A stretch of DNA of 60,501 bases, the filler included, from Hausera hauseri (lineage: Eukaryota): NCBI GenBank assembly GCA_046269625.1. It is 10 parts of 10 records of this genome, joined end to end, with 100 filler letters (N's around TTAATTAATTAA, not from the genome) between each part and the next. Parts side by side here need not be neighbours in the genome. Positions count along the whole stretch, not along the records: positions 1 to 4,636 come from JBJURY010494686.1; 9 more parts are not named here. One strand, written 5' to 3'. The position numbers were made by a program, and so were the translations under genes. Under the pieces are notes generated by a model that saw only the letters and a program-made list of their open reading frames with translations, did no database searches and had not been told where the DNA came from. This document shows, one piece after another, positions 1 through 54,249 of this stretch (its first letter is position 1; every line of letters starts with the position of its first letter).

Positions 1-1390
1 CAATTTGAAGGCCTATCATAATAATCAGCTATTTGGATTTTCATGTTATTTTAACCATTTCAGAGGTCGATGGTGTGTATATATTAACAAGGGTTAGTTT
101 TCACTAGTATAAGGTGAAAATACATCTAATACTAAAACTCTTTCTCGATAACTGCGTACTTCTTTAGTGTTTATTTAACTTTCCTGATGCATAAGCTACT
201 GAGTGTTCCTTCCCAATCTTCTCATTTTTGCGATAAGATCGCACCAACCCCGTAATCACTTACGTCCGTTGCTAGTATAAATGATTTAGTTATATATGGG
301 TAGATTATGACTGGAGCACTTAGTAATCTGTCCTTTTGGTTTTCCAAAGCTTTTTGGCAATTGCTCATCCATAATACTTTTTCCAAATCTTCTTGTTACT
401 TCCTATACAGGTTTGGCTATTTTGCTAAAGTATTTTATGAATCTTCGATGGTAAGTGGCATGCCCAAGAAATCGTCGTAATTTCTTCACTATGGTAGGTT
501 TTGAAAAATCTTTGATCTTTTCATAAAGCTTATCTTGGGGTTTTACACCATGACTATCGACTTGATGTCCCAGAAAATCCACTTCTGTTTTGGCAACCAA
601 ACATTTCTTTGGGTTTATTTCAAACCCGTTATTTCACACCTGTCAAAGAGATCTTGTAAATCTTTTAAATGTTGTTAAAAGTCCCATGAGACTACTACTA
701 TGTAATCAATATAAACCATGAAATGTGGTGCATCCAAAAGTAATAACTCTCTTCCTCATTGAAATGTTGATGGTCCGTTTTTCAATCCTAATGGCATTCT
801 ATTAATTTCCCATAATCCTTCGCCTATCTAGAAGGATATTTTTGGTGTATGTTCTTTTACTTCTACTTGTTAATATCCTTTCTGTAATCAACGGTGGCGA
901 ATATTCTTGAACCATGTAATTTATCCAATATTTCATCAATCCTTGGCAACGGGTACGTATTATCTACTGTTACTTCGTTCACGGCGCGGTAATCCACACA
1001 CATTCTGATGGATGCATCTTTCTTTTGTACAATTACAATGGGTGCTGCCCATGGTGAATTACTGGGTCTAATAATATCACTTTGTCTCATTTCGGCTATT
1101 ATTTCCTTAGTTTTTTCTCTTTTATCGTAATTAAGCCGATATGGCCTTTTCTTGATAGGAGTTTCCATTCCAGTTTTTAGCTTAATCTCATGCTTGATAA
1201 CGGGTATTATACCCATATCATATTCATCTATAGCAAAAGTATCCTTATATTGTTGTAGTATTTTGACTATATCTTCTTTCTCCACATCTGTCAGTGTGCT
1301 ATCCTTTCCAAACAAATCATAATCGTTCCAGTTAATAGGCGTCTTAACAAATTTTGTTATTTCCTTATTTCTATCAAGATGACTTTCAAT
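1..1390 (-). pseudogene. Ty3/Gypsy pol fragment (reverse transcriptase + start of RNase H), frameshifted
   Basis: IIRPSNSPWAAPIVIVQKKD..RMCVDYRAVN..YPLPRIDEIL (863-1315); VDFLGH..LRRFLG (403-600); degraded YIDY catalytic motif near 700-715; RNase H-like ILATDVSDYGVGAILSQ near 230-280. Confidence 0.93.
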
Positions 1391-1416
1391 TTATTCGTGG
1401 GTTCATTTTCTAATCG

Positions 1417-1430
1417 TATTCCGGCTTCTA
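1417..1430 (-). repeat. 14-bp direct repeat (TATTCCGGCTTCTA), second copy at 4110-4123; encodes E-A-G-I on minus strand
   Basis: Exact match read from the sequence at both positions, flanking the helical-domain + glycoprotein block. Confidence 0.8.
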
Positions 1431-1580
1431 TTCGTGGTTTATGTCATTGTCTTTCCATTAATGCAGACAATTCCTGTATGGTGGGAATAATGGCTTCCGT
1501 TGCGTTATTGCCTGTCTTTTATGATATATACATGGGCAATTCTTATACATTTTCTCAATAGTTTCGGTTTATTTGAGGTA

Positions 1581-3450
1581 TTAGCTATTCGAACACTTAC
1601 TTTTTTTTACTTTTTTAATCAGAAAACAACTGGCTATAGATGGAATTAGTGCATAAATGATTTTCCATGTACATCCAGCAGCTTGTTTAACACCGTATCC
1701 CTTAGTTATCATAGTCAAAATCGCTTTTATGAAAGCAAAGATGTAATAGAATCCTAACCATCCAGAATTGAATTGATCAAACCACATGTACCATCCCCAT
1801 GCGGTTGCAAATATATCCTTAGCTATTTTCTTTGCATAATCAGGTCCCATCAAATTTTCCCAGTTGGCTTTTCCGGTGTGGTCGGCTAACACTTTCATCG
1901 CCATTTCTGTTAAAACTTTCTGTCTCTGTTGAGGAAACATCGTCATCCGTCTATGATTTTTTATATCTTGTTCGGAATATACACCCATCTTTACTAGATC
2001 TGTTAATAACTTATACGTTTGTCCCGTCTTCAAATTGATTAAACTAATTCTACGAGGTGGAGTAATTTGCTCCTTTTTCGGCATTCTTATTCATAAATTG
2101 TCGCTTAGTCAAAATGCCGGCGACATGGTATATGTACAAATCTGATGTATATATGATTTTTCTGCTGGATCCAGCAGTATCCGTGTGATGGGTTGCAAAA
2201 AACGCGGCTTTTCCTTGTACCATACATGCAATTCCATAGTACAATCAGTAGTTGGTCTTAATTTTACAGCTACTTTTGTACACTCCAAAGTTACAAGTGT
2301 TTCACCCATAGTTCGAGCAAACTTTCCCTCTGCATCTGATGATTCGGCTGGATCGTTTATTATTCCACCCGTTATTGATGATAAGTATATCCGATTTCTA
2401 ATTACCTCTCTATTCAGTTTACAATCGTTTAACATTATCTCTCGATACATGGCATAAATATTTTCTTGCTGAAAATGATAAATGAAATCAATCTTGTTGT
2501 CAAAATAGAGGTGAGGTTTTACCTTTGATTTATCAATGTTCCTCTTAGCTTTTGCTATTTCTGTTGTGGATAGAAATACCTCCTTATAATTTGTTCGAAA
2601 TACCGTGTGATCACAGCTGCTGGTATTACTTTCTAACTTAAATCTCATTTTATCTTGAGCATTTGCTGAATATACTGTAGTATGGATCTCAATCATGTCT
2701 GATGCTCGGTCTATTTTGCTCTTAGATACCTCTTCTTTGTACATTCGTTCTTTTGTTTCATTAAACTTTCCTACTTTTAATAGAGCTAACTGACACTGAT
2801 CCCTATCGACTTTATGTGACATAATTGATTCGCCAGTGTCACATTCTTTATTATAATAGTCACAATCAGGAAATGTCATTATCTTTCCTGAGGATAGTTC
2901 AAAGAGGGTATCATATTCTCTCAACTCAACTTGATAATCTTTTATGGCTACTATGTTGTCCAAAATTTCACCATGAATATTATATGACTCGCCCTTACAA
3001 TATCCTGCCTTGTCAATTGTTCCGACCACGAAAATTCTTTCACTAATAATTTTTCCTGTCTGTGCCTTTAACCGAATATTCCAGATATTAATTTGTTTTG
3101 TTACAAATGTCTCTATACACATTCATTTACTTATATAGAGTGGCTCAAACGGAGTAGTTGGTTCGACTATTGCTGAGTTTCTATACCTGTAACCACAAAT
3201 AAAGTGAAAATGATTTTTTCGAACAAAACATTCTTTCACTTTGGTCTTTACAAATTCCGACTCTTGATAAACGTAATATTCCTTATCTGTTTTTGTGGTT
3301 AATAAAGCTGGATTGGCAAAAGGACATTTCTCTAGATCTAATAAGAAATATATCGGACCTTCCGTAGATTGGCTACAATAATAAGCAATAATTGAGAGTG
3401 CTTTTGGCATAAGACTAAACAGAAGGAGTATAGGTATAACTTTAGTTAAC
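1581..3450 (-). pseudogene. Chuvirus-like (class III/gB-type) envelope glycoprotein, broken by in-frame TGA stops
   Basis: ORFs 3123-3410, 2109-3122 and 1581-2084 share one frame, separated only by TGA at 3123, 2109 and 2091. Hydrophobic signal VIPILLLFSLMPKALS|IIAYYC. Cys pattern and blocks HLYFDNKIDF, YREIMLNDCKLNREV, GETLVTLEC..V.LRPTTDC..EL.V.Y...RFLQPITRIL, GVYSEQD..MFP and a C-terminal double hydrophobic segment match chuvirus G as I recall it. Confidence 0.8.
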
Positions 3451-4636
3451 CATGATAAGTCAAAATCTGGTTGTAGGTTTCGTTGTATTTCTGACTGTTG
3501 AGGTGGACGATAGTCTGTTCGTTGTTGTGTAGTTGAAACCGATTCATGTATTACTGTATGAACTAAACTAGTAATTCACTCGCCTCTACATTTCACCCAT
3601 CCCTCTACATTATCCTTTAATGCACTTGTAGCGATTTCTATGTTTCTTTCTACCTCTTCTTGATTTGGGTTTACCCCGTTCATTACCATTATTTTATATA
3701 AGCGGTAAGACATAGCTGTTATAATTTTACTCTCAGATATATCTGTTCCCATCATTCTTGATAAAATATCTCTCTCCTGTATTTCACTTATCCTCTCGTC
3801 AGTAGGGATATCTGCAAACTGTTCACTAATCTTTGCAATTTCATTCCAAATAGCTTGCATCAATAAATCCAGTATTTGCAAATTGGTATTAAGCTCAATG
3901 AATGCATTATGCATTCTTGTTAACAGGGTTTGTAACAATGTTGTTAATGGTACATTGTCTATATCATATTCATCTTCTATTGTTAGTAATCTTTGGACAA
4001 TTTCGTCATCTCTGGCCTTTCTACCTTTCAGTTGATACAGTTTCGTTGTTCTTTTTGGTCCGCCGCGGTTCTTTTTATCCGTTTGTATTTTCTCTGATAT
4101 AGGCATATTTATTCCGGCTTCTACTGGTTGAGCCTGATATTGATGTTCAGCCTCCTGTATTTCTTTCCGCCTGACATCAGTGATAATTTCATCGATTACT
4201 TCTTGTTTTGACTGTCTATATAGTAATACACACAGGATTGTATTGGTTTTCCCAAATACCTACCTCATATAAAGTTCCATAATCCACCAAGGTCCATCCA
4301 TAAAAGCGCAGCTCCAATTCTCCTTGGGATTGGCTTATTTCATTAACTCTGTGTTTGAATATAGCTGTTGTATCCAATGATTTCATTCTTAAAACAGGGA
4401 AGTCCTGATTATACTGTTGGTGAGTAACCATTACTTCCGGGTTTTCTCAGACTGTCCTTACTCTATCGGCATATCGATAACTTATATATCGTATAAAATT
4501 CTGATATGGACTTGTGCCAGCAGCATACACTAAGAGTAAGTCCAATAAATTAGGAAATTGTTGATGGTTAATTGTCGGTGACAATAACATAGAAAGGTCT
4601 TGTCTAAACTCAGTGTGGGTGAATAAAAGTCCATTG
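3451..4636 (-). pseudogene. Upstream part of the same degenerate polyprotein (unknown helical domain plus possibly nucleoprotein-like segment)
   Basis: ORF 3576-4106 is in the glycoprotein frame, separated by one TGA, and that frame stays open to ~4259; a shifted frame (4216-4636) has one TGA near 4447 and reads LLSPTINHQQFPNLLDLLLVYAAGTSPY. Confidence 0.5.
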
Positions 4637-4736: not shown

Positions 4737-7700
4737 TCGTTGGCTCACTTACGTACTTTAGGCGTCACCAAGGAACATAATCCAGATCTACTTCGACGAT
4801 ATTTCCTTAATGCTTCACCCACTCAAATTAGGGCTTTACTTACCGTTGTTGAATATTCTACAGCTTTAGATAAACTGGCTGAATTGGCCGATAAAGCACA
4901 CGAAGTCTTACAAATCCATTCACAACCCATCATATCAGCTGCTATTACGACCGATGACAATCAACGCCAAACATCCATCGAACACCAACTGAACCAATTA
5001 CTCGCCGAAAATGCGGCACTCCAACATACAGTCAACACCATCAATGATAAGCTGAATGACGTTTATTTACATCGACGGAATGCTTCCTTGCCTCTTCGAA
5101 CACGTTCTCTTTCCAGAAATCGAACACCGTCACCAACGCGTTCATTCATATGTTATTACTACAACAGATTTAACAACAAAGCGAATAAATGCTGTAGATA
5201 TTATTCATCGAATCTATACTCGGATAACATAATTTGCATCTATCATGCAAAATTCGGATCTGGAGCTCGAAATTGTATTTCGGGCTGTAACTATAAAACT
5301 AACAATAACTACACCACTGATAAACATTCCAGTTTCTCTAAAAATAGCCGTCCTAACTCATCAATCCCAGAAAACTGATTTCGCCGCCAGTATTTTCGGC
5401 AGATCATGGCAAAGGCAATTTATCTAATTCCTTTTGCCGACACACTTCATTTGCAGTCTTCACACTAAAAGCTGCAATCTCTAATCCTAACATTCAATCC
5501 ATAGATTTTCTCATCGATACTGGCGCAGCGATTTCACTACTACCAATTTTTTTTCAGGTTCAACGTTCTTCAACTAGAATGAAACCTTTATACACTGCAT
5601 CTGGTCAATCTCTCCGTATTGCCGGAACTTGCAAATTATCTTTCAATCTACCAAACTTTTCCTCTTCATTCCATTGGACATTTACAGTCGCTAAGGTCCA
5701 GACGGCAATACTTGGCTCAAATTTCCTTTCGCACTACAACTTGATAGTCGATTGTAACCGACGCTGCCTGAAAACGAATACACCTGTTGACCGTTGCACA
5801 GGTATAGACAGCATCCCAACGACACCACAAGCAATAGTAAGTAAGCAGTCTATTTTAAAACAATCCGTTCCTCGTTCTAATTCCAACAACTATCACGTTT
5901 TACGTAGTAAACTTCCAAAAGACAATGTCGACAGCCAATCACAGCTCAATGTTCACAATGACAATCTGGTATTTTCTGTAAAATAATGGAACAATAACAC
6001 CTACTCAAACACGGTTGCGAACCCGACCATCCTACTCCAAACTCCACTTGATTCCTCATCATTAACCAATTACCATATACCAAGTACTGCTAGAAACCTT
6101 GGTTTATCGTCAGTTACAACATTCCAGAAACTACCCACAAGTTTACGACAATTCGTACATACTTCTTGTCCTCGTGTACTTCAGAAAGATTGAAATTTCA
6201 CACCAGTAAACGGCATTTACCATCATATAATTACTAGACATCAAAGGCCAATTAGACAAAAGGTCCGTCCATTGTTACCACGACGCAAATAGACAGTAGA
6301 AGTTAAATTTTTGGAACTCGAACAATCAGGTATCGTCCGCAGATCTAAATCACCATGGTCTTCGCCCTCCACGTTATTCAAAAAAGATGGATCCTTCCGA
6401 TCATGTGGCGATTACGGCCAGCTTAATACTTTAACCATAATGGACGCATATTCACTACCATTAATTAAAGACATATTACATAGGCTTAATACTACTTCCG
6501 TTTATTCGACAACTGACCTAGCTAAAGCTTACCATCAAATTCTGGTCGCACCGGACGACATTGAGAAAACTGCAGTTACCACACTTTTGGTCTTTATGAG
6601 TACTTGTATATGCCTTTCGGTCTCCGGAATGCTTCGCAGACTTTTTAACGACACATCGATTCAATACTTTCAGACTTCACTTTTGCACATCCATATATTG
6701 ACGACATCTTGGTTGCCTCCTCATCAGTTAAACAACACGAAAAACATCTACGATCCATTTTCAAACGCCTTAACCAGTTCAATCTACAAATCAATATTGC
6801 GAAGTGCAACTTCTTTCAAGAACGCGTTAATTTCCTCGGATATATTATCGCATCAGACGGCCATTCGCCTCAGCCTGATCAAGCTGAAACTCTTAAAAAT
6901 GTCCAAATACCTAAGACAACCACAGAAATGCGCAGTTTTCTTGGTACCTTGCATTTTGTCCACAAATATATTCCGTATTGTTCGGAACTCACGGCCCCTT
7001 TTGTACACTTAAGCGGAGGAAAGAAACATCAGAAAATAATGTGGACAGGACAATTGGTTAATGATTTTGACAGGTTACGTGAAAGGCTAAAGACTGGAAA
7101 TACTGGCATTTCCTAAACCTGACGCTGAGTTAATTTTAACTACGGATGCATCAAACATCGCAGTAGGTGCTGTACTACACCAGTTATACAAAGGGGAAAA
7201 TCAACCGCTAGAATTTTTTTCCCGAAAATTAACGCCACCAGAAACCAGATATTCAACTTTTGATCGGGAACTGTTATCAATAGTCCTCGCTTTAAGACAC
7301 TTTTCTCATTTACTTACAGCCCGCCGTTTTGTTATACAGACAGATCATAAGCCGTTGATTAATATAATGTCTATGAAACACTCTTCAACTCGACAAGAAC
7401 GGCAAATTTCATATTTGTCCACATTCAACTTTGACATCAAACATATCGAGGATGTTGACAATCTAGTTGTCGATTTCCTATCCAGATCAGTCGGTTCAAT
7501 TAATTTTTTGCCAATCTTCACTCAGACAAAGCTCCAAGAAAATCAACCATCGCAATATATTCTCAAATCGTTCAAATCTCACCAGATAATCGACGGCGTG
7601 GCCTTAGATACCTCCAAACCAGGACAATCTAGGATAATTCTTGCTCCATCCTTAAACAAACAAGCATTTCAAAATGTACACTCGTTACATCATCCTGGTG

Positions 7701-9357
7701 CCAAAGCAACTTTTCGCTTACTCCATCAACAATTAATATGGCCTACTATGAGTTCTAATGTGCAAGCGTGGGTTAAGGAGTGCGTGGCTTGCCAGAAATT
7801 TAAAATCACCCAACATTTGAAGCCACCACTATACCATTTCCCATGCACATCACGTTTCGAGTCTGTTTATGTTGATCTTGTTGGCCCCTTTCCTCTTGAC
7901 AACGGTCATCAATTTATTTTAACCATGGTGGATCGTTCATCACGATGGCTTGAAGCCGTCCCACTGCGGAGCACCAATAGGGACACGATAGCCGAAGTTT
8001 TTATAGGCACGTGGATCAGCAGATTTGGATCCCCTAGATTCATTATTACGGACCAATGCACTCAGTTTGAGTCCAATCTGTTTAAATCTCTCGTTAGCCG
8101 ATTAGGAATCAGTCACATCCGCACGTCACCGTATCACCCTCAATCGAACGGTCTTTTAGAGAGATTCCACAGAACACTGAAACGTCATTGAGGATCCTCG
8201 CAGAATCCAATAGCAGTTGGACTACTCTCTTTCCGCTTGTTCTTCTGGGATGACGTAATATACCTTCTAGCTCTACGGGTTGTTCACCTACCCAAGCCCT
8301 TTTCGGAACACGTGTACGTTCATTGTTTGAATTAACAGCCTTCGAAGATATACCGACAGACGAAGCTATCCGATCAACACAAGACCATTTTGTTTCAGTC
8401 AGCCAAGATTCCTTCTGTAGGATCTTGAATAACAATAGAAAATACTTACCGGAGGATCTGTATTCTGAAAAATTCGTCTGGTTGAGAAACCAAATGCCCT
8501 GCGGTTTTCAACCACGGTATTGTGGGCCTTACAAACTCGTGCAATTGCATTTCCACAATGCCATTATTCTTAAAGACGGCAAGGACCTAGCGGTGCACAT
8601 CAACAACGTAAAGCCCGACTTTTTCGTTGATTATGCACCTCAAACTGAACCTTCTACATCTTATCTGACATCACCGCCTTTTTCAATTTCTATTCCTCCA
8701 AACTGTACACCTACCCCGTTACTAGAACCTATTCCTCAAACTCCTTCCACTAACATCCCAACTTTTCTTCCCTTTTCTCCTACATTTTCACCTCCAGCCC
8801 ATTCTTCGTCACTGAACAATAAACCAACTTCAACTACGACATCCGACATAGCTTTATCTCCATCAACTAGTCAACCATATTCAACGACACAAAAAATTGA
8901 AATTGGTCACTTTCAGTAGCTACAGTAGAATGCTAAATACTGAAGGCATACAACGCCTTGTACATACGTAGACCGTATAGTCAGTTCACATCATTTCGTT
9001 TTGTGTTCGTTTCGTATTTACTTTCATCCTTACAGTCCATTAATCGACACTAATTCACCTAATAAAAGATCACATAGTTATTCCAGACTGTTCCGTTTCT
9101 GTGTTCGTTTTGTATCCCCACTTATCTGTATAGTTCACACTTAGCCTCGGGGGGGGGTAATGTTATGCCCAACAAGGATTCCTAAATACTCTGTTTTGTT
9201 TTCCCATTTGTTGTTCTTTGTTATGTAATCGCTGACGCATTGACAACGTTTTGATATTTTGTATCATCGTGTCGGAGTGCCTGGTCAGGACGTCAGTAGC
9301 TCGGTTTTACATATCCCTGTTCGAGATCTGACACAACGTTCTAGCGATATGGTAACA
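4737..9357 (+). mobile_element. Ty3/Gypsy LTR retrotransposon (CsRN1/Kabuki-like), 5'-truncated by contig edge, degenerate gag-pol
   Basis: Gag with tandem C-x2-H/Y..C motifs (4740-5378); protease FLIDTGA (~5505-5527); RT (6311-7116, YIDD); RNase H TTDAS (~7135); integrase HPG..WP..C..CQ, DLVGP, ITDQ..QF, YHPQSNG..ERFH (7355-8191); GPY/F module; PPT and LTR. Confidence 0.95.
9149..9357 (+). repeat. Polypurine tract (G9, 9149-9157) followed by putative 3' LTR TGTTA...TAACA (9161-9357)
   Basis: G-run then TAA then TG; 5-bp inverted termini; no 5' LTR in the contig to confirm. Confidence 0.55.
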
Positions 9358-9710
9358 GTCGATAATTGAAACAAGTCCAAAAAAGAAAATAAGCAGATTA
9401 ATAGATACGTCAACGAAAATTTAGTTCAATTGTTTTATTGTTCTACCAAAATAAAATATTCACCGAATATTCAGGACACAATCTCCAAATTTATATTTCA
9501 AAGGCCGTTTGATCTTTTCTTCAACGAAATTTATCTGGTTGTCCCTACAACTAAAACGATAATTGATAACAACAAGAATTGATAAAACACAATACTGTAA
9601 ATAAGTATTGAGTTTTTTACGTTTTTTAATTTGAATAAAAGATGAGTATAACTTGGCTTACTTCTTACTCTTATGCTTTAATGAATTTATCTGAACACAC
9701 TAACCAACAA

Positions 9711-9722
9711 TGGTGTCAGAAG
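9711..9722 (+). promoter_or_regulatory. Primer-binding-site-like motif TGGTGTCAGAAG (tRNA-Leu type) after an ..AACA LTR end, belonging to another element
   Basis: CA end, short spacer, then TGG-initiated PBS consensus. Confidence 0.5.
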
Positions 9723-10000
9723 CTTCCTAAAATTCAACTGGACAACTGTTCAATTTCTCATTCCACTGAAGAAACACTTGCTTGATTTATTTACACGCTC
9801 GTTTCCTGATATATTGCGTCATACTTTTCAATATTTAATATTCAAAATGGATACATTGGAAGTTTTTATCATTAGACAATCATGTGAGATATTACAAGGT
9901 NNNNNNNNNNNNNNNNNNNNNNNNNNNNNNNNNNNNNNNNNNNNTTAATTAATTAANNNNNNNNNNNNNNNNNNNNNNNNNNNNNNNNNNNNNNNNNNNN

Positions 10001-12915
10001 AATGCCAAACGGAAAAATGTCTGTATCAATTGGTCTTAGTACGCTTTTAAAAGAAATAGCATTTTTCAAAGTTGACTTGGATAATATGGTGGTTAAGGCC
10101 TTGGAATATTGCGCGAAGTTGTTCCTTGTGCTGTTTGGCTAAAGACGAAACAATCACAATATCATCAATGTAAGGGTGCGCAAACGGGAAATCTGAGAGA
10201 ATTGAGTCGATATGTCGCTAAAAGGTCTGTGCGGCATTTTGCAGACCGAATGGCATAAACGGGTACTTGTAGAAGCCAAAAGGAGTAGTGACAGCGGTCT
10301 TTTGTATGTCTTCGGGTGCGACTAGTATATGATGGTATGCTTTGGCCAAATCAATGGTCGAATAAATTGTCGAATTAAGGCGATGCAAGATATTTTTGAT
10401 TAGTGGCAGGGGGTACGCATCCATAATTGTCAAGTTGTTCAACTGGCGATAATAACCGCATGGTCTAAAAGTTCCGTCCTTTTTTGTACAACATGTAAAG
10501 GTGACGACCAAGGAGATTTGGAACGGCGTACAATGCCGGAACGTTTTAGTTCAAGAAATTCGGCTTCTACGGCCTGCATACGATGAGGTGACAGTGGTCG
10601 TACCTTTTGGCGTATTGGTCGTTGATGCTGTGTAATTATGTGATGTAAAGTGCTGTTTGCAGGAGTAAACGTGCGATCTTTTTTGAGTATTCGTGGACAT
10701 AATGTGGTGACGAATTGCTGTAAAGTTGTAGGCAACTGTGAGAGATTCGGTAATGATGGTGAAACAGCCTGAATAGTATTGGATGCAATTTGTGAATTGT
10801 TTGTTGATGTGCAGTCAAGTGGTATTTGATGTAAGATGGTCGAATTGAAAATGGTGTTGGATGAAGTGATTTCGCCGAGTGAATGAACTTTCTTGACAGT
10901 ACCACAATTAGCGTCATCGAACCTAGATTGAATATCAATATTATTATTTAAGAATTTACGAAATGAATTATTGTTACAAAAATTCGGATTATATTCTGAA
11001 TTTCTCAAAATTGATCTCCGCGTCTCGATCGACTGCGCAATAGTCGAAATGCTATTGACATGCTCAGTAATGCTGCCAGTAATGCCGCTCCTCAGACATC
11101 GTTGACTGCAGTCAACCAATAAATTATAATATGATAGAAAATCGGACTCTAGAATTGCCGTCTAGACTTTAGCAACTGTGAACATCCAGTGGAAAGGTGA
11201 AGGAAATTTTGGTAAAATAAAAGATAGTTTAGCCATGCCATAAATATGCAGCGGTTGACCCGAAGAGGCGTATAAGGGCTTAATTCTGAATGGTGAATTT
11301 TTCACAGGGAAAGTTTGTATTAATAGGGAAATCGATGCATCTGTATCAATGAGGAAATCGACGGATTGCGTTGTAGAAGCGGCGATTGCAGCCTTTAGAG
11401 TAAAGATAGCGAAAGAGGCGTGTCGGCATTTAGAAAGTGTAGCAGTGCCTTTACCAGAATTTGCCGTAACTTCTGGCGACAAATATAGCTTTTTGAAAAG
11501 GTGAACTAAGACGACTATTAAAAGGAAAGGTAGTACGTCCGTCGTTTGTACCTGTTTTGAAAGTGCAACCTGGAATGCATTTACGAGCAAGGTTTTTAAA
11601 CTTTTTATTGTAGATGCAAACGACAGTGTCTGAAAAAAAATTATTATTATAAAATTTGCACCCCAGACATCATTTTTTGGCATTTTTATTGAATTTGCTG
11701 TGTTAGTAGCAGATAGACGACCGCGCAGGCGATGGTGACCGGTTTCCAGACGCATAATGGGCGCGGTCAGCAGCAAAATTCCTTTGCCGGGACAGGGAAA
11801 GTTCGTTTATTTTGTTGTTTATATTGTTAATTGTTGCTTTTAGTGCTGTATTTTCGGCACGTAACTGATTTAGTTGTTGTTCTATTGATGTGTTATTGCT
11901 TTGAATATTGTTAGCGGCAACTGCCACCGAAACAATTGGTGGGGAGTTTATGTGTAGAACGTCGTGTGTTTTGTTGGCTAATTCGGCCAATTTCTGAAGA
12001 GCCGTGGAGTCCTCTACCACGGTAAGTAGGGCCCGAATTTGGATGCGTAACGTGTTGAGGAAGTAGTGGCGCAGTAGTTCTGGGTTGTGTTCTTTAGTGA
12101 CGAAGAGAGTGTGCAGATGTGTCAAAGAAGTGCGTAAAAATCTGATGGTTGTTGTGTGCCTATAGCATTGTCGTAAAAGAAGCGTTGTATGATAGTGTCC
12201 ATTGAGGGCTCTGTGATTTTAAGAAGAGCGTTAAAAAGTTGTGGATAATGATCAGGAAGTTCAAACATTTCAAGGATGTTGTGAATTCGTGTTTTCATAT
12301 TGTTAGGGAGTAATAAGAGAAGGTTGTGTGCTTTAGTTAAAGAATCGGTAACGTTGTTTGCCTGTAGCCACAGTTGGTGGAATTGCAACAAAGTTTTGCT
12401 GGAGCCTTGGTTGTCGATGAAGAATTCAGTGTAGTGAGGGAAAGGAACAAAAGAAGTAGGGTTTGAAGTGTTATTATCAGAAGTAGTAGTGGAATTTTGT
12501 AGTATAATGGGCTTTGGTTTCTTGATGAGTTTATCCATGATGCCTATGGTTGGCGTTGAATTTATGCCACCACGGATGCGAAAGTGTATATGGAGATGGA
12601 TATGAGGCGAAGAAGGATTTAGGATCCCACAGATAGGTACGTTAGAGCCGTTGTGCGTGATGTAGAAGTCAAATGAACAGATGAAGGCGCAGACGATGTT
12701 ATAAATTTGTGTGTTGTTTATTTGCGATGTCTTGATGGTGTAAATATGTAAGTTATTTAAGAAAAAGGAAAATGGAAAATGGGGTTGGTGTGTAGCCAGG
12801 AGCGCTATGCAAGATCCCCACGAACAGTGCCGTCCGACCCAATGACTTAAGGCGGGTGGCCGGAAATTCAGCGCCGCCGCGTTAAAACCGAAACTTCGGG
12901 GTGGTCGACTCTTCC
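10001..12915 (-). mobile_element. Same Ty3/Gypsy family, 5' half (leader, Ubl-Gag, protease, RT), degenerate
   Basis: Gag 11703-12538 homologous to the other copies (LLRHYFLN..IRALLTVVEDS..KLAELA); FLIDTDAS protease; RT 10218-10511; GC-rich leader 12780-12915 collinear with 37590-37720. Confidence 0.93.
12566..12780 (-). other. Ubiquitin-like domain in frame with Gag (..DFYITHNG..HLHIHFRIRGG|INS)
   Basis: Manual translation upstream of ORF 12122-12538 is open and ends in a ubiquitin-type RIRGG. Confidence 0.75.
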
Positions 12916-13759
12916 TTTTCGAGTTCCGTCATTACAACGCCATTTTGTACTATTTCCTTAGAGACATATATCGTTTTTATATTCAAATAATTGGAATGAT
13001 AATTCGGCTGGGTCTCCAGTTTGAAATTTGCATATTTTTTCAGTGGAATAAACTTTATAACGCTCGTTTCTTTAACGATACACTTGTCACCTGATTGTAT
13101 CCAAGAATTCATGATTGTAGTTTTCCCCTCATTTTTCCAAATCGATTTAATATCAATGGTTTTGAACGTCATCTCCGGTAATTTGCTTTTAATCTGATAA
13201 TTTCGTGGACTGAATAAAGCATCATGTGAACAGATCAGATTTGAGTCTTTTTCAATTGATAAACGATTTGTAGAAGAACTTTTGACTAGAAACAAATTCA
13301 TTCACAACTTTGATTGATGGTAGTTCCAGAATTTTGGAAAATCCATTTAGATCTTCTTTTTTATAAAATCCATTAATCGCCATTTGTAAAGCTTTTCAGA
13401 ACTTGTATTGAACGTCAAGATTTCCCATAACATTACCATTTTTCTGTTGAACTGACTATATGGTTCTCATGTTTTACAATGACTATGGTCGATAGCAGTT
13501 CAATGTCAGCGTTAACTCGTCCGTTTGATACATCTTCTAGATAGATTTTTAGACCGATTTTCAATTTCCTTGGTAAATTTTTAATCACCGGTAGTTTGAT
13601 CATTAGATTTGATTCGTAATTTAAATTTGATATTTGTAATTGGACACTGTTTATTGACAGCGTGTGAAAGTTACACAAACCTTCAAGATCGAACTCAAAT
13701 TTTCTCACGTCAACTTCTTTAAGATTCCAAGGCGACAGGATTTCAAATCGGAATTCCAT
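12882..13759 (-). pseudogene. Unknown protein fragments (two ORFs, different frames) abutting the Gypsy leader
   Basis: ORFs 12882-13301 and 13433-13759 with protein-like composition; no recognisable motif. Confidence 0.25.
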
Positions 13760-14418
13760 TTACCATAATCCAACGAGAAAGCCAACGTAAATCGTCGATT
13801 GAAAAGTCTTGAATTTGGTGTATCAAATTCTATTTCGAAAAAACTGTTATAACACGTTGTATCGTCCATTACAACATGAGGCACGATTGATGAGACTCCT
13901 TTGAAAACATATCCGGTTTGTGTATACTCTTTTTATATTGTTATTCCGTTGGATTCGAATTTTGGGATCGAAAATAGGTAATTCTCCAAGTGATTGCTTT
14001 GCAATTTATATCTGACAAAAACTTTTGTATGCGGGCAGGAACAGAAATTTGGCAAACCAAATAAAAAGATAAAATCAACAATGTGTCAATTCACAATAAC
14101 ATGACGCAAAAGGAGAATACGATTGTGATTAAAAACGGTTACAAAAATATTATAAAAAAATCCAGCCGGACTACGCACAAATACCAGTATTACCTTATNN
14201 NNNNNNNNNNNNNNNNNNNNNNNNNNNNNNNNNNNNNNNNNNTTAATTAATTAANNNNNNNNNNNNNNNNNNNNNNNNNNNNNNNNNNNNNNNNNNNNTC
14301 TTGGAAAGCTTCAATATCTATAAATGCTGTCGCCATTACTCAATATTTATGCGTAGAATCATTATTTGTTTATAACACAAACGAAACAATTAACTATTAT
14401 TATTATCATAACAAATCA

Positions 14419-14883: not shown

Positions 14884-14989
14884 TGTATTTATTCCTACGC
14901 CAATAATAAAATTACACGTATATTTATACACGTTAATTGGGTTGATGAAAGAAAAACGGTAAGAGAAAATTTATTGATAATTAAAATGT

Positions 14990-17900
14990 AGAACGTACGA
15001 AAGAACGAATGAACGAATGAACGAAAGAGAGAATGACAGAACAATGTAGGAAACCAAGGAACGAAAGAAAGAACGAAATAACAAATGAAAGAATAAAAAG
15101 AGAAAGGAAGAAACGAAAGAATGGTAGAAGGAGCGAAAGAAAGAATGAAGGAACGAATGAGGGAACGAAAAGACGAAGGAATGAACAAATGAGTGAACGA
15201 AGGAACTAAGGAAGGAAGGAACGAACGGAAAAACGAACGAATGAAAGAACAAAAGAACGAAAGAACGAATGAATGATCGAATAAAATAACAAATGAAGGA
15301 ACGAAACAAAGAAGGAAGGAAGAAAGGAATGAGTGAACGAACGAACATAGGAAAGAACGAACGAAAGAATAAAGGAATGATCGACGAAATAAAAGAACGA
15401 TGTAACGAACCCAGGGACGAAAGGAAGAACAAATTATCGAATGACCGAACGAAAGAACGAATAAATGAATGAACGAAAGAAGAAACGAACCAAAGAATGA
15501 AGCAAGGAATGAAGGAATAAACGAGCGAAGGAATGAACGAACGAAAGAAAGAACGAACGAAAGAACAAACGAAAGAATCAACAAACGGATGATCGAGCGA
15601 AATAACGAGCGATCGAACGGAAGAACGAACGAATAAACAAAGTAACGAACGAATAAAAGAAGGAGTGAACGAACGATCGAACGAACGAACTATAGAATGA
15701 AAGAAGGACAGAACGAGGTAACGAACCAAGGAATGATAAAAAGAACAAAATAACCAATGACCTAACGAAAGGCCGAATGAAGAAACGAAGGAATGACGGA
15801 AAGAAGGAAAGAAAGAACAAACGAAGGAACCAATGAAAGAAGTAAAGAATGAAAAATAGAAAGAAGGAACGAAAGAATAAACGAACGAATGAATGATCGA
15901 ACGATCGAACGAATGAACGATCGAATGATAAAAAGACAGAACGATGTAACAAACCAAGGAACGATAGAAAGAACAAAATAACGAATGAAAGAAGGAAAGA
16001 AAGAACGACGAAAGGAAGAAATGACGGAAGATACGAAAGAAAGAACGAACGAATGAATGAACGAACGAACGAACGAAGGACAGAATGAAAGAATGAAAGA
16101 AGGAAAGAATGCACGATCGAATGAATGAAGGAACGAATCAAAGAAGGAAGGACGGAAGGAATAAGTGAACGAACGAACGGAGGAAAGAAGGAACGCAGGA
16201 ATGAAGGAACGACCGACCGAATGAAAGAACGATCGAACGAACGAAAGAATGAAGGAACGATAGAGAGAACCAACGAGCGAAGGACTGAAGGAAGGAGAGA
16301 ACGAAGGAACTAACGAAGGAACCAAAGACAGAAAGAATGAAGTAAGAACAGAATGAAAGAATGAAAAAATGAAGGGATGAAAGAACGATCGAACGAACAA
16401 AAGAACGAAGGAACAAATGAACCAACGAATGGATGAAGGAACGAACAAACAAATGGTAGAATGACCGACCGATGTACCGAACTAAGAACGAAAGAAAGAA
16501 CGAACTAACGAATGACCAAACTACAGAATGAAAGAAGAAACGAAGAAATGACGGAAAGAACAAAAGAAAGAACGAAAGAATTAATAAAAAAGAACGAAAT
16601 AAAGAATGAAGAAAGGAACGGAGGAACGAAAGAAGGAAAAAACGAACGAAAGAAGGAACGTGCGAACCAACGACCGATCGAAGAAACGAAAGAAAGAACT
16701 ACGTAGCGAACGAAGAAACAAAATAAGTAACGATTTATCGAACGAAAGAAATAATGAAGAAGCGAAGGAATGACTGAACGAACGAAAGGAAGAACGAACG
16801 AAAGGAAGAACGAACAAAAGAAAGAACGAACAAGTAAACAAAGGAATCACGGAAAGAACGAAAGAAAGAAAGAACGAATGAATGAAAGAACGAAAGAATG
16901 AAAGACCTAACGAAGGATCAAACGAACGAACTAACGAAAAAATGAAGGAAGGAACGAACGAACGAACGAACGACTGAACGAAAGAAAGAAGGTACATGCG
17001 GCCGAACGAAGGAACAAACGAGCGATCAAACGACAAAATGAAAGAACGATGTATCAAACCAAGGAACGAAAGAAAGAACAAAATAACGAATGACCGAACA
17101 AAAAAACGAGCAAAGAGAGGAAGGAATGAGGGAAGGAACGAAAGAAAGAACCAACGAATGAATTAAAGAAAGAACAAAAGAAAGAATAAAGGAATTAACA
17201 AAGAAACAAAAGACTGAATGAATGAAAGAACGAGGGAATGATGGAACTATCAAAGGAACCAACAAACGAACGAAAGAAAGAACTAACGAAAGAAGGAAAG
17301 AACAAATGAACGAAAGAGACAGTGATAGAACGATGTATCGAAAGAAGGAACGAAAGAAAAAACGAAATAACGTATGACCAAACGAAAGCGAAAGTAGTAA
17401 CGAATGAACGAACGAATTAAAGAAAGAATGAAGGAAAGAACCAAAGAATGAAGGAACGAACGACTAAATGAAAGAGTGAACGAAGGAAGGAAAGATCTAA
17501 CAAACGAATGGAAGAAAGTATTGAGGAACGACGCAGCGAATGAACGAAAGACTGAATGAACGAAAGAACAAAAGAATTAACGAGCGATCGAATGAACGAA
17601 CGAAGGAAAGAACAAACGAAGAAAGAAAGGAACGAACGAATGACCTAATGAAGGAACGAACGAAAGAAGGAATGAAAGAACGAAAAAACGAACGAAAGAA
17701 CGAAAAAAAGGAGGACCGGAAGAAAAAAGGAAAGGAGGAACAAAGAAAGGAACGAAAGAAGGCCGAAAGATGAAACGAACGAACGAACAAATGAAAGATC
17801 GAACAGACAAACGAACGAAGGAAAGAGTGAATGAAAGAAATAACGAGCTAACGGACGAAAGAACAAAGGAAAGAAAGAACGAAAGAACTAAAAAAATAAG

Positions 17901-20900
17901 GAACCAACGAAACAAAGAACGAAAGAAGGACTGAAAGAAGAAAGGAACGAACAAACGAACGAAGGAACGAAAGAAGTACTGAAAGAAGAAACGAGCGAAC
18001 GAACGAAAGAACGAAGGATTGAAGGAACGGGCGATCGTACGAACGAAAGAACTAGGAAGGAAGGAAGGAAAGAACAAATTAAAAACCGAACAGAAGAATG
18101 AACGAACGAATGCAAGAGCGAATAAGCGAACAATCGACCGAAGGATTGAAAAAAAGAACGAAATAATTAAAGAGACCCTAAAAGGGAGGAAAGAGAAAAC
18201 GAAGAAATGAACCAACGAGCGAACGAGGGAATGATCTATCCAACGAAAGGATGAAAGAACAAATGAAAGAAAAAATGAACGAACGAAGAGATAAACGAAA
18301 GTACGAACGAACAAACGAACGAAGGAACAAAGGAAGGAACGAATGAACGAAGGAAAGAATGATCTAATGAAGGAAAGAAAGAAACATCGACCGAACAAAC
18401 GAAGGAATGAAAGAAGGACCGAAAGAAGAAAGGAACAAACGAACGAAAGAACGAACGAAAGATAGATCGAAAGAAGAATCGAACGAACGAGAGAAGGAAC
18501 AAATGAAAGATCGAAAAGACGAACGAAAGAACGAAAAGAGGAGGAAACCACCGAACGAACGACCGAACGATTGAACGAAAGAACGAAAGAATTAACGAGT
18601 TATCGAAGAAAAATTCGAGGGAACAAAGGAAAGAACAAAGAAATGAACGAGCGAAAGAATGAACGAACGAATGATTGAATGAAAGAGTGAAGGAACAAAC
18701 TAAGGAACGAATGAAGGAAGGAATAGATGAACAAATGATTAAACAAAAGATCGAAGGAAGAAAAAAAATAAGGAACGGGCGATCGGAACAACGGACGAAC
18801 GAGGAATGAAGGAAGGAAAGAACGAAAAAACGAAAGGACGAAAGAAAGAACGAAAGAAATAATGAGCGATAAAAGGAAGGAAGGAGGGAACAAAGGAACG
18901 AAGAAGGAAAGAACAAATTAAAGATCAAACAGAAGAATGAACGAACGAATGGAAGAGCGAATAAGCGAACAATCGACCGAAGGATTGAAAAAAAGAACGA
19001 AATAATTAACGAGCGATAAAAGGAAGGAAGGAGCGAACGAAGAAATGAACCAATGAGCGAAAGAGGAAATGATCTATCCAAGGAAAGGACGAAAGAACAA
19101 ATGAAAGAAAGAATGAACGAATGAAGGAACAAAGCAACGAAAGAACGAAGGAAGGAACGAGTGATCTAACAAAGGAAAGAAAGAACAAACGAACGAAAGA
19201 AGGACCGACAGAAGATTCGAACGAAAGAGCGAAGGAACAAATGAAAGATCGAACATGCGAACGAGCGAACCAATAAAAGAGCAAACCAGCGACCGAACGA
19301 CCGAGTGATTGAACAAAAGAACGAAAGAATTAACGAGTGATCGAAGGAAGAACGATGGAACGAACGAATGAACAAAGGAATGAACGAGCGAATGTATGAC
19401 CGAACGAATTATTGAACGAAAGAGTGAAGGAACAAACTAAGGAAAGAACGAAGGAAGAAACGAATTAAGGAACGGGCGATCGAACGAACGAACGAACGAG
19501 GAACGAAGTAAAAAAAGAACGAAAGAACGAAAGGACGAATAAACGAACGAACGAATAAAAGAACAAAATAACCAAGAAACGAACGACAGAACGAACGAAC
19601 AAACGAGCGGACGAAGGAACGAACGAAAGAACGAAAGAAAGAAGGAAAGAACGAAGGAACGAACGAAGGAAAGAACGAAAAAACGAAAGGACGAAAGAAA
19701 GAACGAAAGAAATAATGAGCGATAAAAGGAAGGAAGGAGCGAACGAAGGAACGAAGAAGGAAAGAACAAATTAAAGATCAAACAGAAGAATGAACGAACG
19801 AATGGAAGAGCGAATAAGCGAANNNNNNNNNNNNNNNNNNNNNNNNNNNNNNNNNNNNNNNNNNNNNNNNNNNNNNNNNNNNNNNNNNNNNNNNNNNNNN
19901 NNNNNNNNNNNNNNNNNNNNNNTTGAAAAAAAGAACGAAATAATTAACGAGCGATAAAAGGAAGGAAGGAGCGAACGAAGAAATGAACCAATGAGCGAAG
20001 GAGAAAATGATCTATCCAACGAAAGGACGAAAGAACAAATGAAAGAAAGAATGAGTGAATGAAGGAACAAAGCAACGAATGATCTAGCGAAGGAAAGAAA
20101 AAAGAACGAAGGAACAAACGAACGACCGAAAGAAGGACCGAAAGAAGAATCAAACGATCAAACAAAGGAGCGGACGAATCAAGGAAAGCACGAGCGAAAG
20201 AAAGAAAGAACGAAGGAAGGAACAAAGGAATGAAGGAAAGATCGAAAGAACGAACGAAAGAACGAAGGAACGAACGGACGAATGCATGATCGATGGAACG
20301 GAGGAATGATCGAATAAACGAATGGTTGAGCGAAAAAACAAACCAATGAACAACCGAACGAATGAACTAACGGACGAACGATAAAAGCAATAAAGGAAAG
20401 AAAGAACGAGCGATAGAAAGAACGAACGAATGAGCAATTGAAATAACAAAGGAATGACGGAATGAACGAACGAACCGGACGAAGGAACGAACGCAGGATC
20501 GGGCGAACGAAAGAAACAAAGAACTAACGGCCGAACGAATAAATGAATAAATGAGCTAATGGACGGACAAAGGAACGAACGAATGAACGAATGAACTAAC
20601 GAAGAAACGATGGAATGAAAAAATGAATGAACTAAAGAACAAACGAACGAACTATCGAAAGAACGAACGAATGAACGAATTAACGAAAATATGAACAAAC
20701 AAGAGGAAGAAGGAAGGAAGGAACGAACGACGGAACGAAGGAACGAATGATGGAAAAAATGGAGCAACGAACGAACGAAAGAATGAACGAACGACTGAAC
20801 GAATGAGCGATCGAAGGAACGCAGGAACGAACGAATGAACGAATGATTAAGCGAAAGAAGGAAGGAACGAACGAAAGAAGGAACGAGCGGAGGAACGAAC

Positions 20901-21699
20901 AAACGGACGATCGAAGGGTCAAACAAATGAACGAATGAACCAACGTAGAAAGAAAGGAATAAACGAATGAACTATCGAAAGAACAAACAAATGAACGAAT
21001 TAACGAAAGGATAAAGGAACGAAAGGACGAAGGAAGGAAGGAACAAACGAACGAACGAACGAACGAAGGAACGAATGAACGAAAGAATGAAGCAACGAAC
21101 GAACGAAAGAGCGAACAAACGAACTATAAAAGCAATAAAGGAACGAAAGAACGAACGATGGAAAGAACGAACGAACGAGCGATCGAAATAACAAATGAAT
21201 GACGGAATGAACGAACGAACCGGACGAAGGAACAAACGCAGGATCGGGCGAACGAAAGAAAGAAAGAACTAACGGCCGAACGAACAAATGAATGAATGAG
21301 CTAATGGACGGACGAAGGAACGAACGAAGGAACGAACGGAAGGCGAACAAATGAACGAAAGAACGAACAAACGAACCACAGAAGCAATTATGGAAACAAC
21401 GAAGGAATGGTCGAAGGAATGAAGGAAGGAGCTATTTAAAGAACGAAGGAAGAACCGCATGAACGAGCGAATGGACAAACGAAAGATTGAACAAATGAAA
21501 TAACGAAAGAAATAACGGGTGATCGAACGAAGGAACAAAAGAATGAAGGAATGAACAAATGAACGATCGATCGAATTATCTAACTAACGAACGAACGAAA
21601 GAATGAATGAACGAAAGAACCAACGAACGTACGAATGAAGAAACGGACGAACGAAAAAATGAACGATCGAACGATTGAACGAACAACCGAACGAACGAG
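14990..21699 (+). repeat. ~6.7-kb degenerate purine-rich (GAAC/GAAA/GAAT/GAAG)n satellite with higher-order repeats
   Basis: Continuous GAAN tetramers; block at ~18065 repeated at ~18905 and ~19757; block ~20440 repeated ~21190; ACGATGTA-containing unit recurring 15040-17340. Confidence 0.97.
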
Positions 21700-32382: not shown

Positions 32383-35300
32383 TGTGGCCGACGCACCGGC
32401 AGTGGACGCCCGGCCGTGTCCAACCGAATGGGTCTGAGGGCGACGGTCAATGTAGGCACCACATCACCACCCCCCAGTGACAAAGTTAAAACTATGAAGA
32501 GTAAAAGGATAGAGAGAAAAAATTGCAAAACGAAAAGTGTTTGTGTCAGCTGAGCTTAATGGGAATAAGACGTTCGGTACCTTCGACTGATTTTCCCCTG
32601 CTATACTTGCTGTATGTGACTTTGCGTGTTGTGTCTTTATTAAGATTGAGGTTGGGGAAAGAATTTGTAGATTTTGGTGTAGGTGTTGTGTCGTGCTAAG
32701 ATGAGTCGGAATAAAGAGAAGAAGAGGGAGAAGAAGGAAGAGGGATTGTTGAAGACGGGTGGTTAAAGGCATTGAAAAGAGCGTTACAAGATGAAGGAGT
32801 GATGACAGGTGTATTGGCGGATAAAGAATGAGAGGAAAAGTTGGAGTAGAGTTTGGAATTGTGTTGAGTAAGAGTGGAGGAGGAAGATAATACAGAGGGA
32901 GTGGTAGGAATAGAAGTAGGAAGTGTAGAAAATGATAAAGCAGGACTAGTCGTAGAAGAGGAAGGTGGAAATGGTGCAGCAATAGATATCTTGATAGCAG
33001 GGAGTGGAGGAATGTGAAAAGAGGTTGACGTGTCGATTGGTAGGGTGTCGTTGACAAATAAAGCGGGCTTTAAGTTGATAATATGTACTGCAAGTTCTTT
33101 GCCGTCTTTAGAGATAATGGTGTTGTGTGAGTGTAGCTGTATCACTTTGTAGGGTCCCAGGTACCGTGGTTGGAAAACCCAATGCGCTTGGTTCTTTAGC
33201 CATACGAATTTTGCCCAATACAAATCTTTGGGTAAGTATTTTCTATCTTTCTGAAGCAGCCTGCAGACTGTGTCTTTGCTGAACTCGACGAAGTGATTTT
33301 TGCGCCGCCCGTATCGTCTCATCCGTAGCAGTGTCGTCTAGGGCGGTTAGTTCGAATAATTATCGTACAGGAGCTCCGAACAAGGCTTTAGTAGGTGAGC
33401 ATCCTGTAGAAGTGGACGGAATGTTCCGCCAGCCGAGCAGAACGAAAAGAAGAAGATTCATCCAACTAATGTTGGACTCTGCAAGGATTCGTAGTGACGT
33501 TTTCAATGTTCGGTGGAAACATTCAAGAAGGTCATTCAATTGGGGTGATAAGGCGTGGTATGTGTGCGATGTATCCCCAATCGGTTAACAATGGATTTGA
33601 ACATGCTGGATTCAAACTCTAAACCCTGCTCCGTGATGATGAAACGAGGTGATCCCAACCTGCTAATTCATGTGCGAATGAAAACGTCAGTTATAGTGTC
33701 AGTAATTATGCTCTGCAGATGTATGGCTTCTGGCCATGGCGAGGAACCGTCCATCATGGTGATGAGGAATTGATGACCGTTGTCTGGAGGAAGAGGGCCA
33801 ACGATGTCGATATGCACGGATTCGAAACGCAATGTGCAGGGAAAGTGGAATAGTGATGGCTTTAAATGCTTAGCTGTTTTGTATTTTTGGCAAGCCACAC
33901 ACTCCTTAACGCATGCCTGCACATAAGAATGCATTGACGGCCATGGTACTTGTCGATGGAGTAGACGAAAAGTGGCTTTAGCACCAGGATTGTGTAGTGA
34001 ACGCACGTTGTGAAAAGCTTGCCTTTGCAATGATGGTGCTAGAATTATTCCGGAATGGCCTGGTTTGGAGGTGTTTAAAGCCACGCCGTCAACAATTGTA
34101 AAAGACGTAAAAGACTTAAGCATGTCTTGAGGTGGCTGGTTCTGTTTAAGTTGATCTAGCGTAAAAATGGGAGAAAAATTAATCGAACTAACCAACCTAG
34201 ATAAAAAATCAGCAATCAAATTGTTAACCCCGTTAATGTGTTTAATATCGAAGTTGAATGTCAATAAGTATGATATTTGTCGTTCTTGGCGTGTGGCAGG
34301 TGTTTCATGGCCATGATGTTAAGTAAGGGTTTGTCATCAGTTTGTAAAGTGAAATGACGAGCGACCAGTAGGTGTGAGAAATGCTTTAAAGCGAGAACGA
34401 TGGCTAATAGTTCACGGTCTAACGTGGAATATCTGGTTTCAAGTGCTGTCAGCTTGCGAGAGAAAAATTCTAATGGTTGATTTTCTTTCTTGTGGATTTG
34501 GTGGAGTACAGCGCCTACAGCAGTGTTTAACGCGTCTGTAGTAAGGATGAGTTCTGCATCAGGCTTCGGAAAAGCTAGAATATCGACGGTTTGGATTCCT
34601 TCGCATAGCATGTCAAATTTGTCAACCAATTCTAATGTCCACTGGATTGGCTGATGTTTTTTGTTGCCGCTTAGGTGTGCAAATGGTGCTGTCAATTAGG
34701 AGCAATATGGTATATATTTATGTACAAAGTGTAGTGTACCAAGGAAGCTACGCATTTCGGTGGTCGTCCGTGGCAACTGGATGTTTTAAGAGTTTCGACT
34801 CGGTCTAATTGCAGGGAATGACCGTCTGGTGTAATAGCATGGAATAAAAAGTTAATGCGCTTTTTGAAAAAATGGCATTTGTCGAAATTGACTTAGAGGT
34901 TATGGTGGTTAAGACGTTGGAGTATTGAGAGAAGATGTTCCTCATGTTATTTGGCCGAGGATGAAACGACTAGGATATCATCAATATAAGGGTGTGCAAA
35001 CGGGAAATCGGAAAGAATTGAATCGATGTGCCTCTGAAAAGTTTGTGCGGCATTTCGCAAACCGAATGGCATAAACAGGTATTCGTAGAGGCCAAAAGGA
35101 GTAGTTACTGCAGTTTTTTCTATGCCTTTGAGTGCTACCGGTATTTGATGGTATGCTTTAGCTAAATCAATGGTTGAATATTTGGTGGTTGAATTAAGAC
35201 GATTCGAAATATCCTTGATGAGTGGTAAAGGGTATGCATCCATGATAGTCAAGTTGTTAAGCTGTCGGTAGCCACCGAATGGTCTAAAAGTATCGTCCTT

Positions 35301-50045: not shown

Positions 50046-50222
50046 ATCGGTCCCTCAACCAAATCATTTATGAATGATGGAATACGGATAAGTAAGTTAC
50101 CTCTTGATGAGGGTAAACAATTCTACGAACCATCGACATTTTCGTTCCTTGTAGAATCGGGAGGTAATTCGACCATCTCCGGACCGACGATTCAAAGTTC
50201 CAGATTAAGAGGCCAGAGTGAT

Positions 50223-53320: not shown

Positions 53321-54249
53321 ATTTAGTTCCATCAAGTAGACTACGAATGAATACTGAAGAGAGTAAAATCCAAAACCTTGATAACTAATTGTGATTTATT
53401 TTGAAAATTCAAATTCTATAACACGATCAATTTCTTAATATAACAAATTCTATTTGTAGCCATTCCAACATTGTTCTGACAACAAATCCCATTAATTATT
53501 CATGTCACCATCACGAAATTTGGCGTTTTCCTGGATTGTCTCATTTACAAAATACATGTTAAAATTTCTCTGATATCTGTGTTCAAATTACTGGAATTTA
53601 TCCAAATGGTATCGACAATTTTATTTCAAAAACTTTGGATCTATTTTCATTAACAATGAGAAATTAGCGTTCCATGTCTATATCACTAATCTTTCACACT
53701 TCCAAATTATTTAACATAAAACTTAACACAATTTACATATAATAAAATATATTCCAGTTATACAACAAAACCAAAAAAATTCTTCAAAAATCACAAAACA
53801 TGATTGAATTTTGTCGAAACAAAAAGACATTTAGTTTTCTCGCCATGAAATATCATCCGGCATGTTCGTATAAAAATTGGATGTAGTCCATGAAACAAAC
53901 ATTTTCAGAGAAACCGAGCCCTGGCATCAAATTGGAAAATGAGTAGTCTTCGTTAAAAATGTGATTACTCTGCAACGACAAATAAAAATTTATCCGTAAA
54001 AATTCAGCACGTTGGAAAGAGATGACGTTAACATTTCAATTGCCGGATATTAATGAAGATGAAGTAACTGTTGTATCTTTTTCATGGAGTACGATTCACC
54101 CCGAATTGGGAGACGAATAAGAGTGATTTAGTGATCGACAACTGGTACATTCCGTTGATTGAATTGTGTCCGCAATATTTGAGATTAATGATTTGCAAAT
54201 CCGGTGACGAATTGTGTCCGCAATATTTGAGATTGACGATATGCAGATC

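Follow-up and report, generated by a model that had tools for sequence, protein, structure and literature searches.

We found that contig 1 of the analyzed Hausera hauseri DNA very probably represents a decayed fragment of a Ty3/Gypsy element with gag-env-pol order, of the Burro-like kind, whose envelope tail and protease were likely lost by an internal deletion near position 1610. The window, by which we mean the whole stretch of 60,501 nucleotides (assembly GCA_046269625.1), consists of contigs strung together with N spacers between them, contig 1 corresponding to window positions 1 to 4636. The element lies on the minus strand, is truncated by the contig ends on both sides, and displays, in this order, a ubiquitin-like domain (Ubl), a Bcl-2-like domain, a signal segment, a class III glycoprotein (G), the rear part of a pol linker, an RT, and an RNase H. 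It is a decayed and inert copy of a Ty3/Gypsy element, and the polyprotein cannot be made from it.

A long frame interrupted by four TGA codons

Positions 4259 to 1581 of the minus strand form a single frame of 892 codons in which only four stops occur, all of them TGA (3578, 3125, 2111, and 2093). This is what the sequence-only reading of this DNA had described, and it compares to about 71 stops expected by composition and to 84 and 80 stops in the two remaining frames across the same region. The element extends upstream of 4259, beyond a frameshift, up to the contig end at 4636. A different genetic code with TGA read as an amino acid was ruled out: TGG is used 11 times in the frame, and the RT region is rich in stops and frameshifts. 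Searching the PDB with the whole frame using phmmer returned only weak rows corresponding to haemagglutinin coiled coils. Since G and RT are encoded in separate frames, the window copy does not represent one polyprotein; the apparent single polyprotein proposed earlier thus holds for the intact relatives but not for this copy.

G is predicted to be a class III fusogen

The same reading had recognized in this frame a helical domain, an internal signal peptide, and a Cys-rich glycoprotein with C-terminal transmembrane segments, and all of these were found. The glycoprotein, a class III env of the chuvirus-G/herpes-gB type, spans positions 1596 to 3437 (minus strand) and includes three of the TGA codons (3125, 2111, and 2093). 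Its amino acids (aa) 275 to 888 match Pfam PF24664 (Monjiviricetes_fusion) with an E value of 1.2e-72. An internal hydrophobic segment resembling a signal peptide is located at positions 3384 to 3440 of the minus strand (aa 274 to 292; Kyte-Doolittle value of 2.15 over 19 aa), and a similar segment lies directly ahead of G in the related proteins P0004, P0005, and P0006. Two further hydrophobic segments are found at the C terminus of G (1763-1707 and 1673-1617, minus strand).

We then considered the structure of G, which was modeled with X at the frame breaks and an alignment of 110 sequences (pLDDT of 91). As anticipated in the sequence-only reading, which had expected a Chuviridae G or class III fold, the best Foldseek matches of the model were G proteins of chu-like viruses (E value of 1e-34, 16 to 19% identity), and herpesvirus gB was matched as well (2e-12). 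Furthermore, gB accounted for 33 of the 35 rows obtained in a profile search with G. Because of the PF24664 match, the similarity of the model to chu-like G and herpesvirus gB, and the gB rows of the profile search, we assign G to the class III fusogens on the basis of sequence and predicted structure. G is 28 to 35% identical to retroelement-borne G proteins and 16 to 19% identical to viral ones. In a tree of G (127 of 135 rows kept), the window G falls into a clade of 24 sequences (support of 1.0) containing all 19 polyprotein-borne G proteins.

Domains predicted upstream of G

At the upstream end of the contig, positions 4219 to 4635 (minus strand) encode a helical segment followed by a Ubl at about 4446 to 4237; this piece contains one TGA, is cut by the contig end, and is linked to the next frame by a frameshift near 4235 to 4222. 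It is 66% identical to aa 396 to 533 of P0127. When a profile was built from eight homologous segments, each of the best 60 rows was a chain of ubiquitin, ISG15, or another ubiquitin-like protein, while scores for the single domain were weak (e.g., an E value of 0.0045 for ubiquilin-2).

The helical domain noted earlier corresponds to positions 3564 to 3902 (minus strand, with a TGA at 3578) and is probably Bcl-2-like. Pfam Bcl-2 was matched by three of five aligned segments (best E value of 1.8e-5), the window's own segment being unmatched, and profile matches in the PDB were mostly to Bcl-2/Bcl-xL, although weak (E values of 0.09 or higher). When the helical segment of a relative was modeled (pLDDT of 68), fold searches listed solely chains of the Bcl-2 family, with Foldseek E values of at least 0.28 and VIA Z scores of up to 6.3 (rmsd of 3.5 to 5.2). 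A search of the ESM Atlas with the helical domain gave no matches, and a search with the Bcl-2-like profile retrieved nothing beyond its own three source proteins. Each of these sequence- and model-based tests is weak, but they agree with one another and with the published annotation of Burro.

RT and G trees point to one lineage

Downstream of G, tblastn confirmed a Ty3/Gypsy RT-RNase H in the same contig and orientation. The rear part of the pol linker, which is normally located after the protease, lies at positions 1505 to 1612 in the RT frame (E value of 2.5e-5). The pol leader and the front of the RT occupy an open frame of 175 aa (863-1390) and show 42 to 49% identity, over 132 to 142 aa, to the five polyproteins found first. 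The remaining RT and the RNase H (1-887), all on the minus strand, contain many stops and several frameshifts: the tblastn pieces alternate frames, two overlapping HSPs carry 13 and 10 stops, and the catalytic motif is altered. The contig ends before an integrase, and Gag and the LTRs likewise fall beyond its limits. Among proteins of 308 to 2000 aa, a search with the RT front identified no close relative, the best matches showing 35 to 55% identity.

We placed the RT-RNase H in a phylogeny, as had been suggested, using 87 sequences of Gypsy-type pol proteins, a set with neither named reference RTs nor BEL/Pao references. The window RT joined 11 G-carrying polyproteins with a FastTree support of 0.948, and its best nine BLAST matches all carry G. 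Additionally, the window RT and these 11 polyproteins (12 of 12) have in common a spacing of 15 residues before the catalytic motif; the spacing is 17 residues in 35 of the 37 other RTs in which it was measurable (38 were not). The presence of Gypsy-type RT and RNase H, as seen by tblastn and in the tree, assigns the element to Ty3/Gypsy (Metaviridae). Since the RT and G trees both place the window with the G-carrying polyproteins, these sequence comparisons indicate that RT and G are of one lineage and lead us to reject chance nesting.

G precedes RT in related polyproteins

To describe the gene order in relatives, we relied on 164 proteins with a G match, 23 of which are multidomain, and on domain profiles built partly from the same proteins. 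Of 2252 candidates from a search among long proteins, five were matches; each of them had G and protease in one chain, and four also had RT and integrase. All 11 proteins having both G and RT read G, one to five proteases, and RT in one open reading frame (ORF), in good agreement with the earlier proposal of an env located before RT in a Ty3/Gypsy lineage. However, the search for relatives with the same G-to-RT junction in an uninterrupted ORF, also suggested then, gave another result: the intact relatives all have one or more proteases in between. The order protease, RT, RNase H, integrase is present in the 10 relatives having an integrase; the window copy has no protease and ends before the integrase. 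Four proteins (P0002, P0004, P0130, and P0276) harbor a further protease-like domain after the integrase. On the basis of these sequences, we consider the G-before-RT order to be a trait of the lineage.

The protein P0127 is 74% identical to the window frame and combines a capsid-like region, a CCHC knuckle, Ubl, Bcl-2-like domain, and G in one ORF. As P0127 carries the capsid-like region and the knuckle upstream, the sequence evidence indicates that the element family has an ordinary Gag; Gag is found before G in eight more proteins. A relocation of the protease ahead of G was ruled out, no protease being located there in P0127 or in any of the 19 proteins having G and protease. The same order was also found in at least one locus among the matches listed for metagenome_contigs, L001, which is a single frame of 3426 aa; no LTR pair was found for it, and its 5' end is open. 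No related loci were found in viral_contigs or genome_contigs.

The protease is missing at one junction

The sequence-only reading had reported that no aspartic protease lies between G and RT, and both a motif scan and a profile search bore this out. In the six frames of contig 1, the only D-[ST]-G occurs inside G, and the protease profile gave nothing real on this contig (best E value of 0.34) but detected the protease of contig 2 (1e-7). The gap of about 190 bp that had been described between G and RT is, however, not a spacer: pol sequence, read in the frame of RT, begins at about 1612, overlapping the stop codon of G, directly after the last hydrophobic segment of G. The profile built from the protease-to-RT linker is matched from mid-domain only, starting at profile position 77 to 79, with 15.3 bits compared to a maximum of 2.9 among 1000 shuffles (0/1000 as high). 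In relatives, the linker motif, located in eight of 11, lies 232 to 1552 aa after the end of G. Because the linker resumes mid-domain right after the last hydrophobic segment of G, we conclude that roughly 0.7 kb or more, comprising the tail of G, the front of the linker, and the protease(s) between them, is absent at one frame-changing junction (1609-1612, minus strand), which is A-rich. The sequence thus suggests that the absence of the protease is likely a lesion at this junction rather than a feature of design. Since database searches found no close relative spanning the G-to-RT stretch, the expectation that intact members of the window's family would carry a protease is drawn by analogy from relatives at 30 to 35% G identity.

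We also looked for the stretch in public sequencing runs. No RNA run was listed as containing it, and it was found in a single run, X1 (share of 0.28; contigs only, possibly not independent). This run comprises 15,396 contigs with at least 80% likeness covering all 30 bins, a depth that does not translate into a copy number. Among the best six of 234 loose ends, those of at least four contigs fall at 1610, on the side beyond G, and no contig piece bridges 1610 among the best eight of about 3,450 pieces. For the region 1370 to 1612, the run supplies dozens of variant contigs.

The strongest competitor of a genomic deletion is that the element is the same and its protease-less junction results from an assembly join of two stretches of a high-copy repeat, which we regard as possible but unlikely. 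The A-rich run at the junction would fit such a join, as would the very large number of diverged family copies in run X1 and the fact that 1610 is unbridged among the listed pieces and that other contigs diverge there. On the other hand, the two sides of the junction are of one lineage and in the right order, and they are evenly decayed, as in an old insertion that was also gathering deletions. By our estimate, genomic deletion is considerably more probable than an assembly join.

It is much less probable that the junction reflects a widespread protease-less subfamily that kept its env and spread, with a protease supplied in trans or placed after the integrase. If true, such a subfamily would represent a Gypsy element that is enveloped and whose polyprotein has been rewired, and the four relatives with a protease-like domain after the integrase are in line with it. 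We had initially counted the dozens of variant contigs over 1370 to 1612 as proof of this subfamily but dropped the argument: the stretch is ordinary pol linker, so this cover would be expected of any copy. Moreover, the junction cuts a domain, shifts the frame, and removes the tail of G, and the loose ends at 1610 indicate that other copies continue differently.

Finally, a recent chimera of a negative-strand RNA virus and a Gypsy element, or a chuvirus fragment nested before an unrelated Gypsy RT, is extremely improbable: G folds like chuvirus G and neither protease nor LTR separates it from RT, but G is closer to retroelement-borne than to viral G, RT and G come from one clade, Gag and not nucleoprotein lies upstream, and P0127 and the 11 G-protease-RT polyproteins already contradict such an origin. 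The hybrid of RNA virus structural genes and RT inferred earlier is thereby not upheld, P0127 having Gag upstream and the helical domain being probably Bcl-2-like.

Proposed function of intact members

While the window copy is broken by internal deletion, as we favor, intact members would be translated from one long ORF. Gag, Ubl, and the Bcl-2-like domain would remain cytosolic, while the internal signal would direct G into the ER, where signal peptidase would free it. A stop-transfer segment would then bring the chain back to the cytosol, and the aspartic protease would release RT, RNase H, and integrase. By means of G, the particles would be able to fuse with another cell. A putative role of the Bcl-2-like and ubiquitin-like domains would be to dampen host cell death or defense or to act on protein turnover.

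Comparison with known elements

The arrangement, which the sequence-only reading had contrasted with the usual position of env downstream of pol, has already been described, both for Burro (PMC6431247) and for the GAG-ENV-POL errantiviruses (PMC13524379), and the window contains a dead copy of this architecture. According to the accessible part of PMC6431247 (Arkhipova and Yushenova 2019, citing Grohme 2018 and Jurka 2007 as sources for Burro/GYPSM1), planarian Burro encodes a single polyprotein comprising Gag, CCHC, Ubi/SUMO-like and BCL2-like domains, an in-frame env, protease, linker, RT, RNase H, and integrase. The Burro env matches mononegavirus fusion proteins and sits between BCL2 and protease, the linker between protease and RT is dUTPase-like, and the giant ORF includes AIR1, Smc, MATH, BIR, and ankyrin as well as two to three knuckles; in Dugesia japonica, fragments decayed by stops and frameshifts have been described. 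Compared by description to this account, the window, P0127, and L001 have in common with Burro/GYPSM1 the order Ubl, Bcl-2-like, in-frame env. However, unlike Burro, P0127 is compact, with one knuckle and about 200 aa from knuckle to Ubl, no Pfam matches to MATH, BIR, ankyrin, AIR1, or Smc were found before its G, and the window copy has no protease. The linker between protease and RT is conserved, and that of L001 gave no dUTPase match in the PDB or Pfam. The window element is therefore Burro-like in its order but, failing the giant-ORF feature, is not Burro proper.

Non-canonical nematode ERVs reportedly have a continuous gag-env-pro-pol frame. GAG-ENV-POL errantiviruses with a gB-type env are reported from Nematoda, Bryozoa, and Platyhelminthes (Chary and Hayashi, eLife 2026, PMC13524379), and the portion of this paper available to us describes chuvirus-like glycoproteins beside gypsy pol, multicopy elements, intact copies, and, citing Sacco et al. 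2022, a flipped env/pol order in nematode ERVs. The element shares with these errantiviruses a class III env and, with Gag as seen in P0127, the position of env between gag and pol, but the window copy is broken, unlike the intact copies covered there. The motifs and cysteine order of six Schmidtea mediterranea C1a env proteins from that study resemble those of the window G, by eye only. This likeness hints at a flatworm-like host, and the other contigs of the window have the look of AT-rich animal DNA. In the accessible text and supplements of PMC13524379, "Ubiquitin" does not occur, and the single supplement match to "bcl" is an assembly name.

Anakin elements, which are BEL/Pao, carry a chuvirus glycoprotein (Dezordi 2020, PMC7642597, as far as accessible) and thus have the same glycoprotein family on an LTR retroelement, but they differ in their BEL/Pao backbone, compared to a Gypsy-type RT and an env before pol here. 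We rejected an Anakin-type pol, as the RT nests with Gypsy-type proteins in a tree built without BEL/Pao references and its best matches have the order G-protease-RT-RNase H-integrase. An endogenous chuvirus fragment was likewise discarded, retroelement domains lying on the flanks of a G with 16 to 19% identity to viral G, and Tor (PMC4402516) and Troyka (PMC12440569), judged from the parts of these sources at hand, fitted poorly. Compact Burro-like elements with Ubl, Bcl-2-like domain, and a gB-type env in frame occur across public assemblies, with at least 11 near-complete polyproteins, and link the description of Burro with the GAG-ENV-POL errantiviruses.

Repeated protease-like domains and a possible second membrane protein

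Many relatives of the contig 1 element carry several protease-like domains in a single polyprotein, as seen in the database proteins P0002, P0004, P0130, P0133 and P0276 and in the polyprotein ORF of the metagenome-contig locus L001. Up to five such domains lie between the class III fusion glycoprotein and the reverse transcriptase, and up to seven were found in total (P0276), with some of the extra ones located after the integrase. D-T/S-G motifs were present in the domains that were inspected. In the portions of the literature on related elements that we examined, we found no mention of multiple protease-like domains per polyprotein.

C-terminal to the integrase, a second signal-like segment followed by a beta-rich stretch was found in P0002 (aa 3290-3710), P0005 (aa 3300-3610) and P0006 (aa 2655-2974). 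This stretch is closed by a transmembrane segment in P0002 and P0005, and in P0006 it gave an Ig-like Pfam match (E 1.5e-5). By eye, an apparently similar unit is located between proteases in the L001 ORF. This post-integrase unit could possibly represent a second membrane protein of the element. The L001 polyprotein is followed by a separate ORF of 496 aa (L001:10617-12107) harboring an exonuclease domain (RNase_T, E 1.4e-5).

Another relative, the gag-env-pol-type polyprotein P0131 (HBK71150.1), comes from an entry filed as a Flavobacteriaceae MAG, which likely reflects contamination from the host animal.

Other features of the window

Decayed ordinary Gypsy elements of a lineage other than that of the contig 1 element occupy positions 4737-9900 (contig 2, with a protease), 10001-14198, 33300-37700 and 48849-50054; two copies among them are about 80% alike. 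Positions 14900-21400 consist of a degenerate, purine-rich microsatellite of 4-base units (about 6.5 kb); the long minus-strand ORFs to which this repeat gives rise are spurious. Judged by eye, positions 52320-53274 look like a broken MARK/Par-1-like kinase gene, and positions 54068-55513 like a Polinton-type family-B DNA polymerase, which is broken as well.
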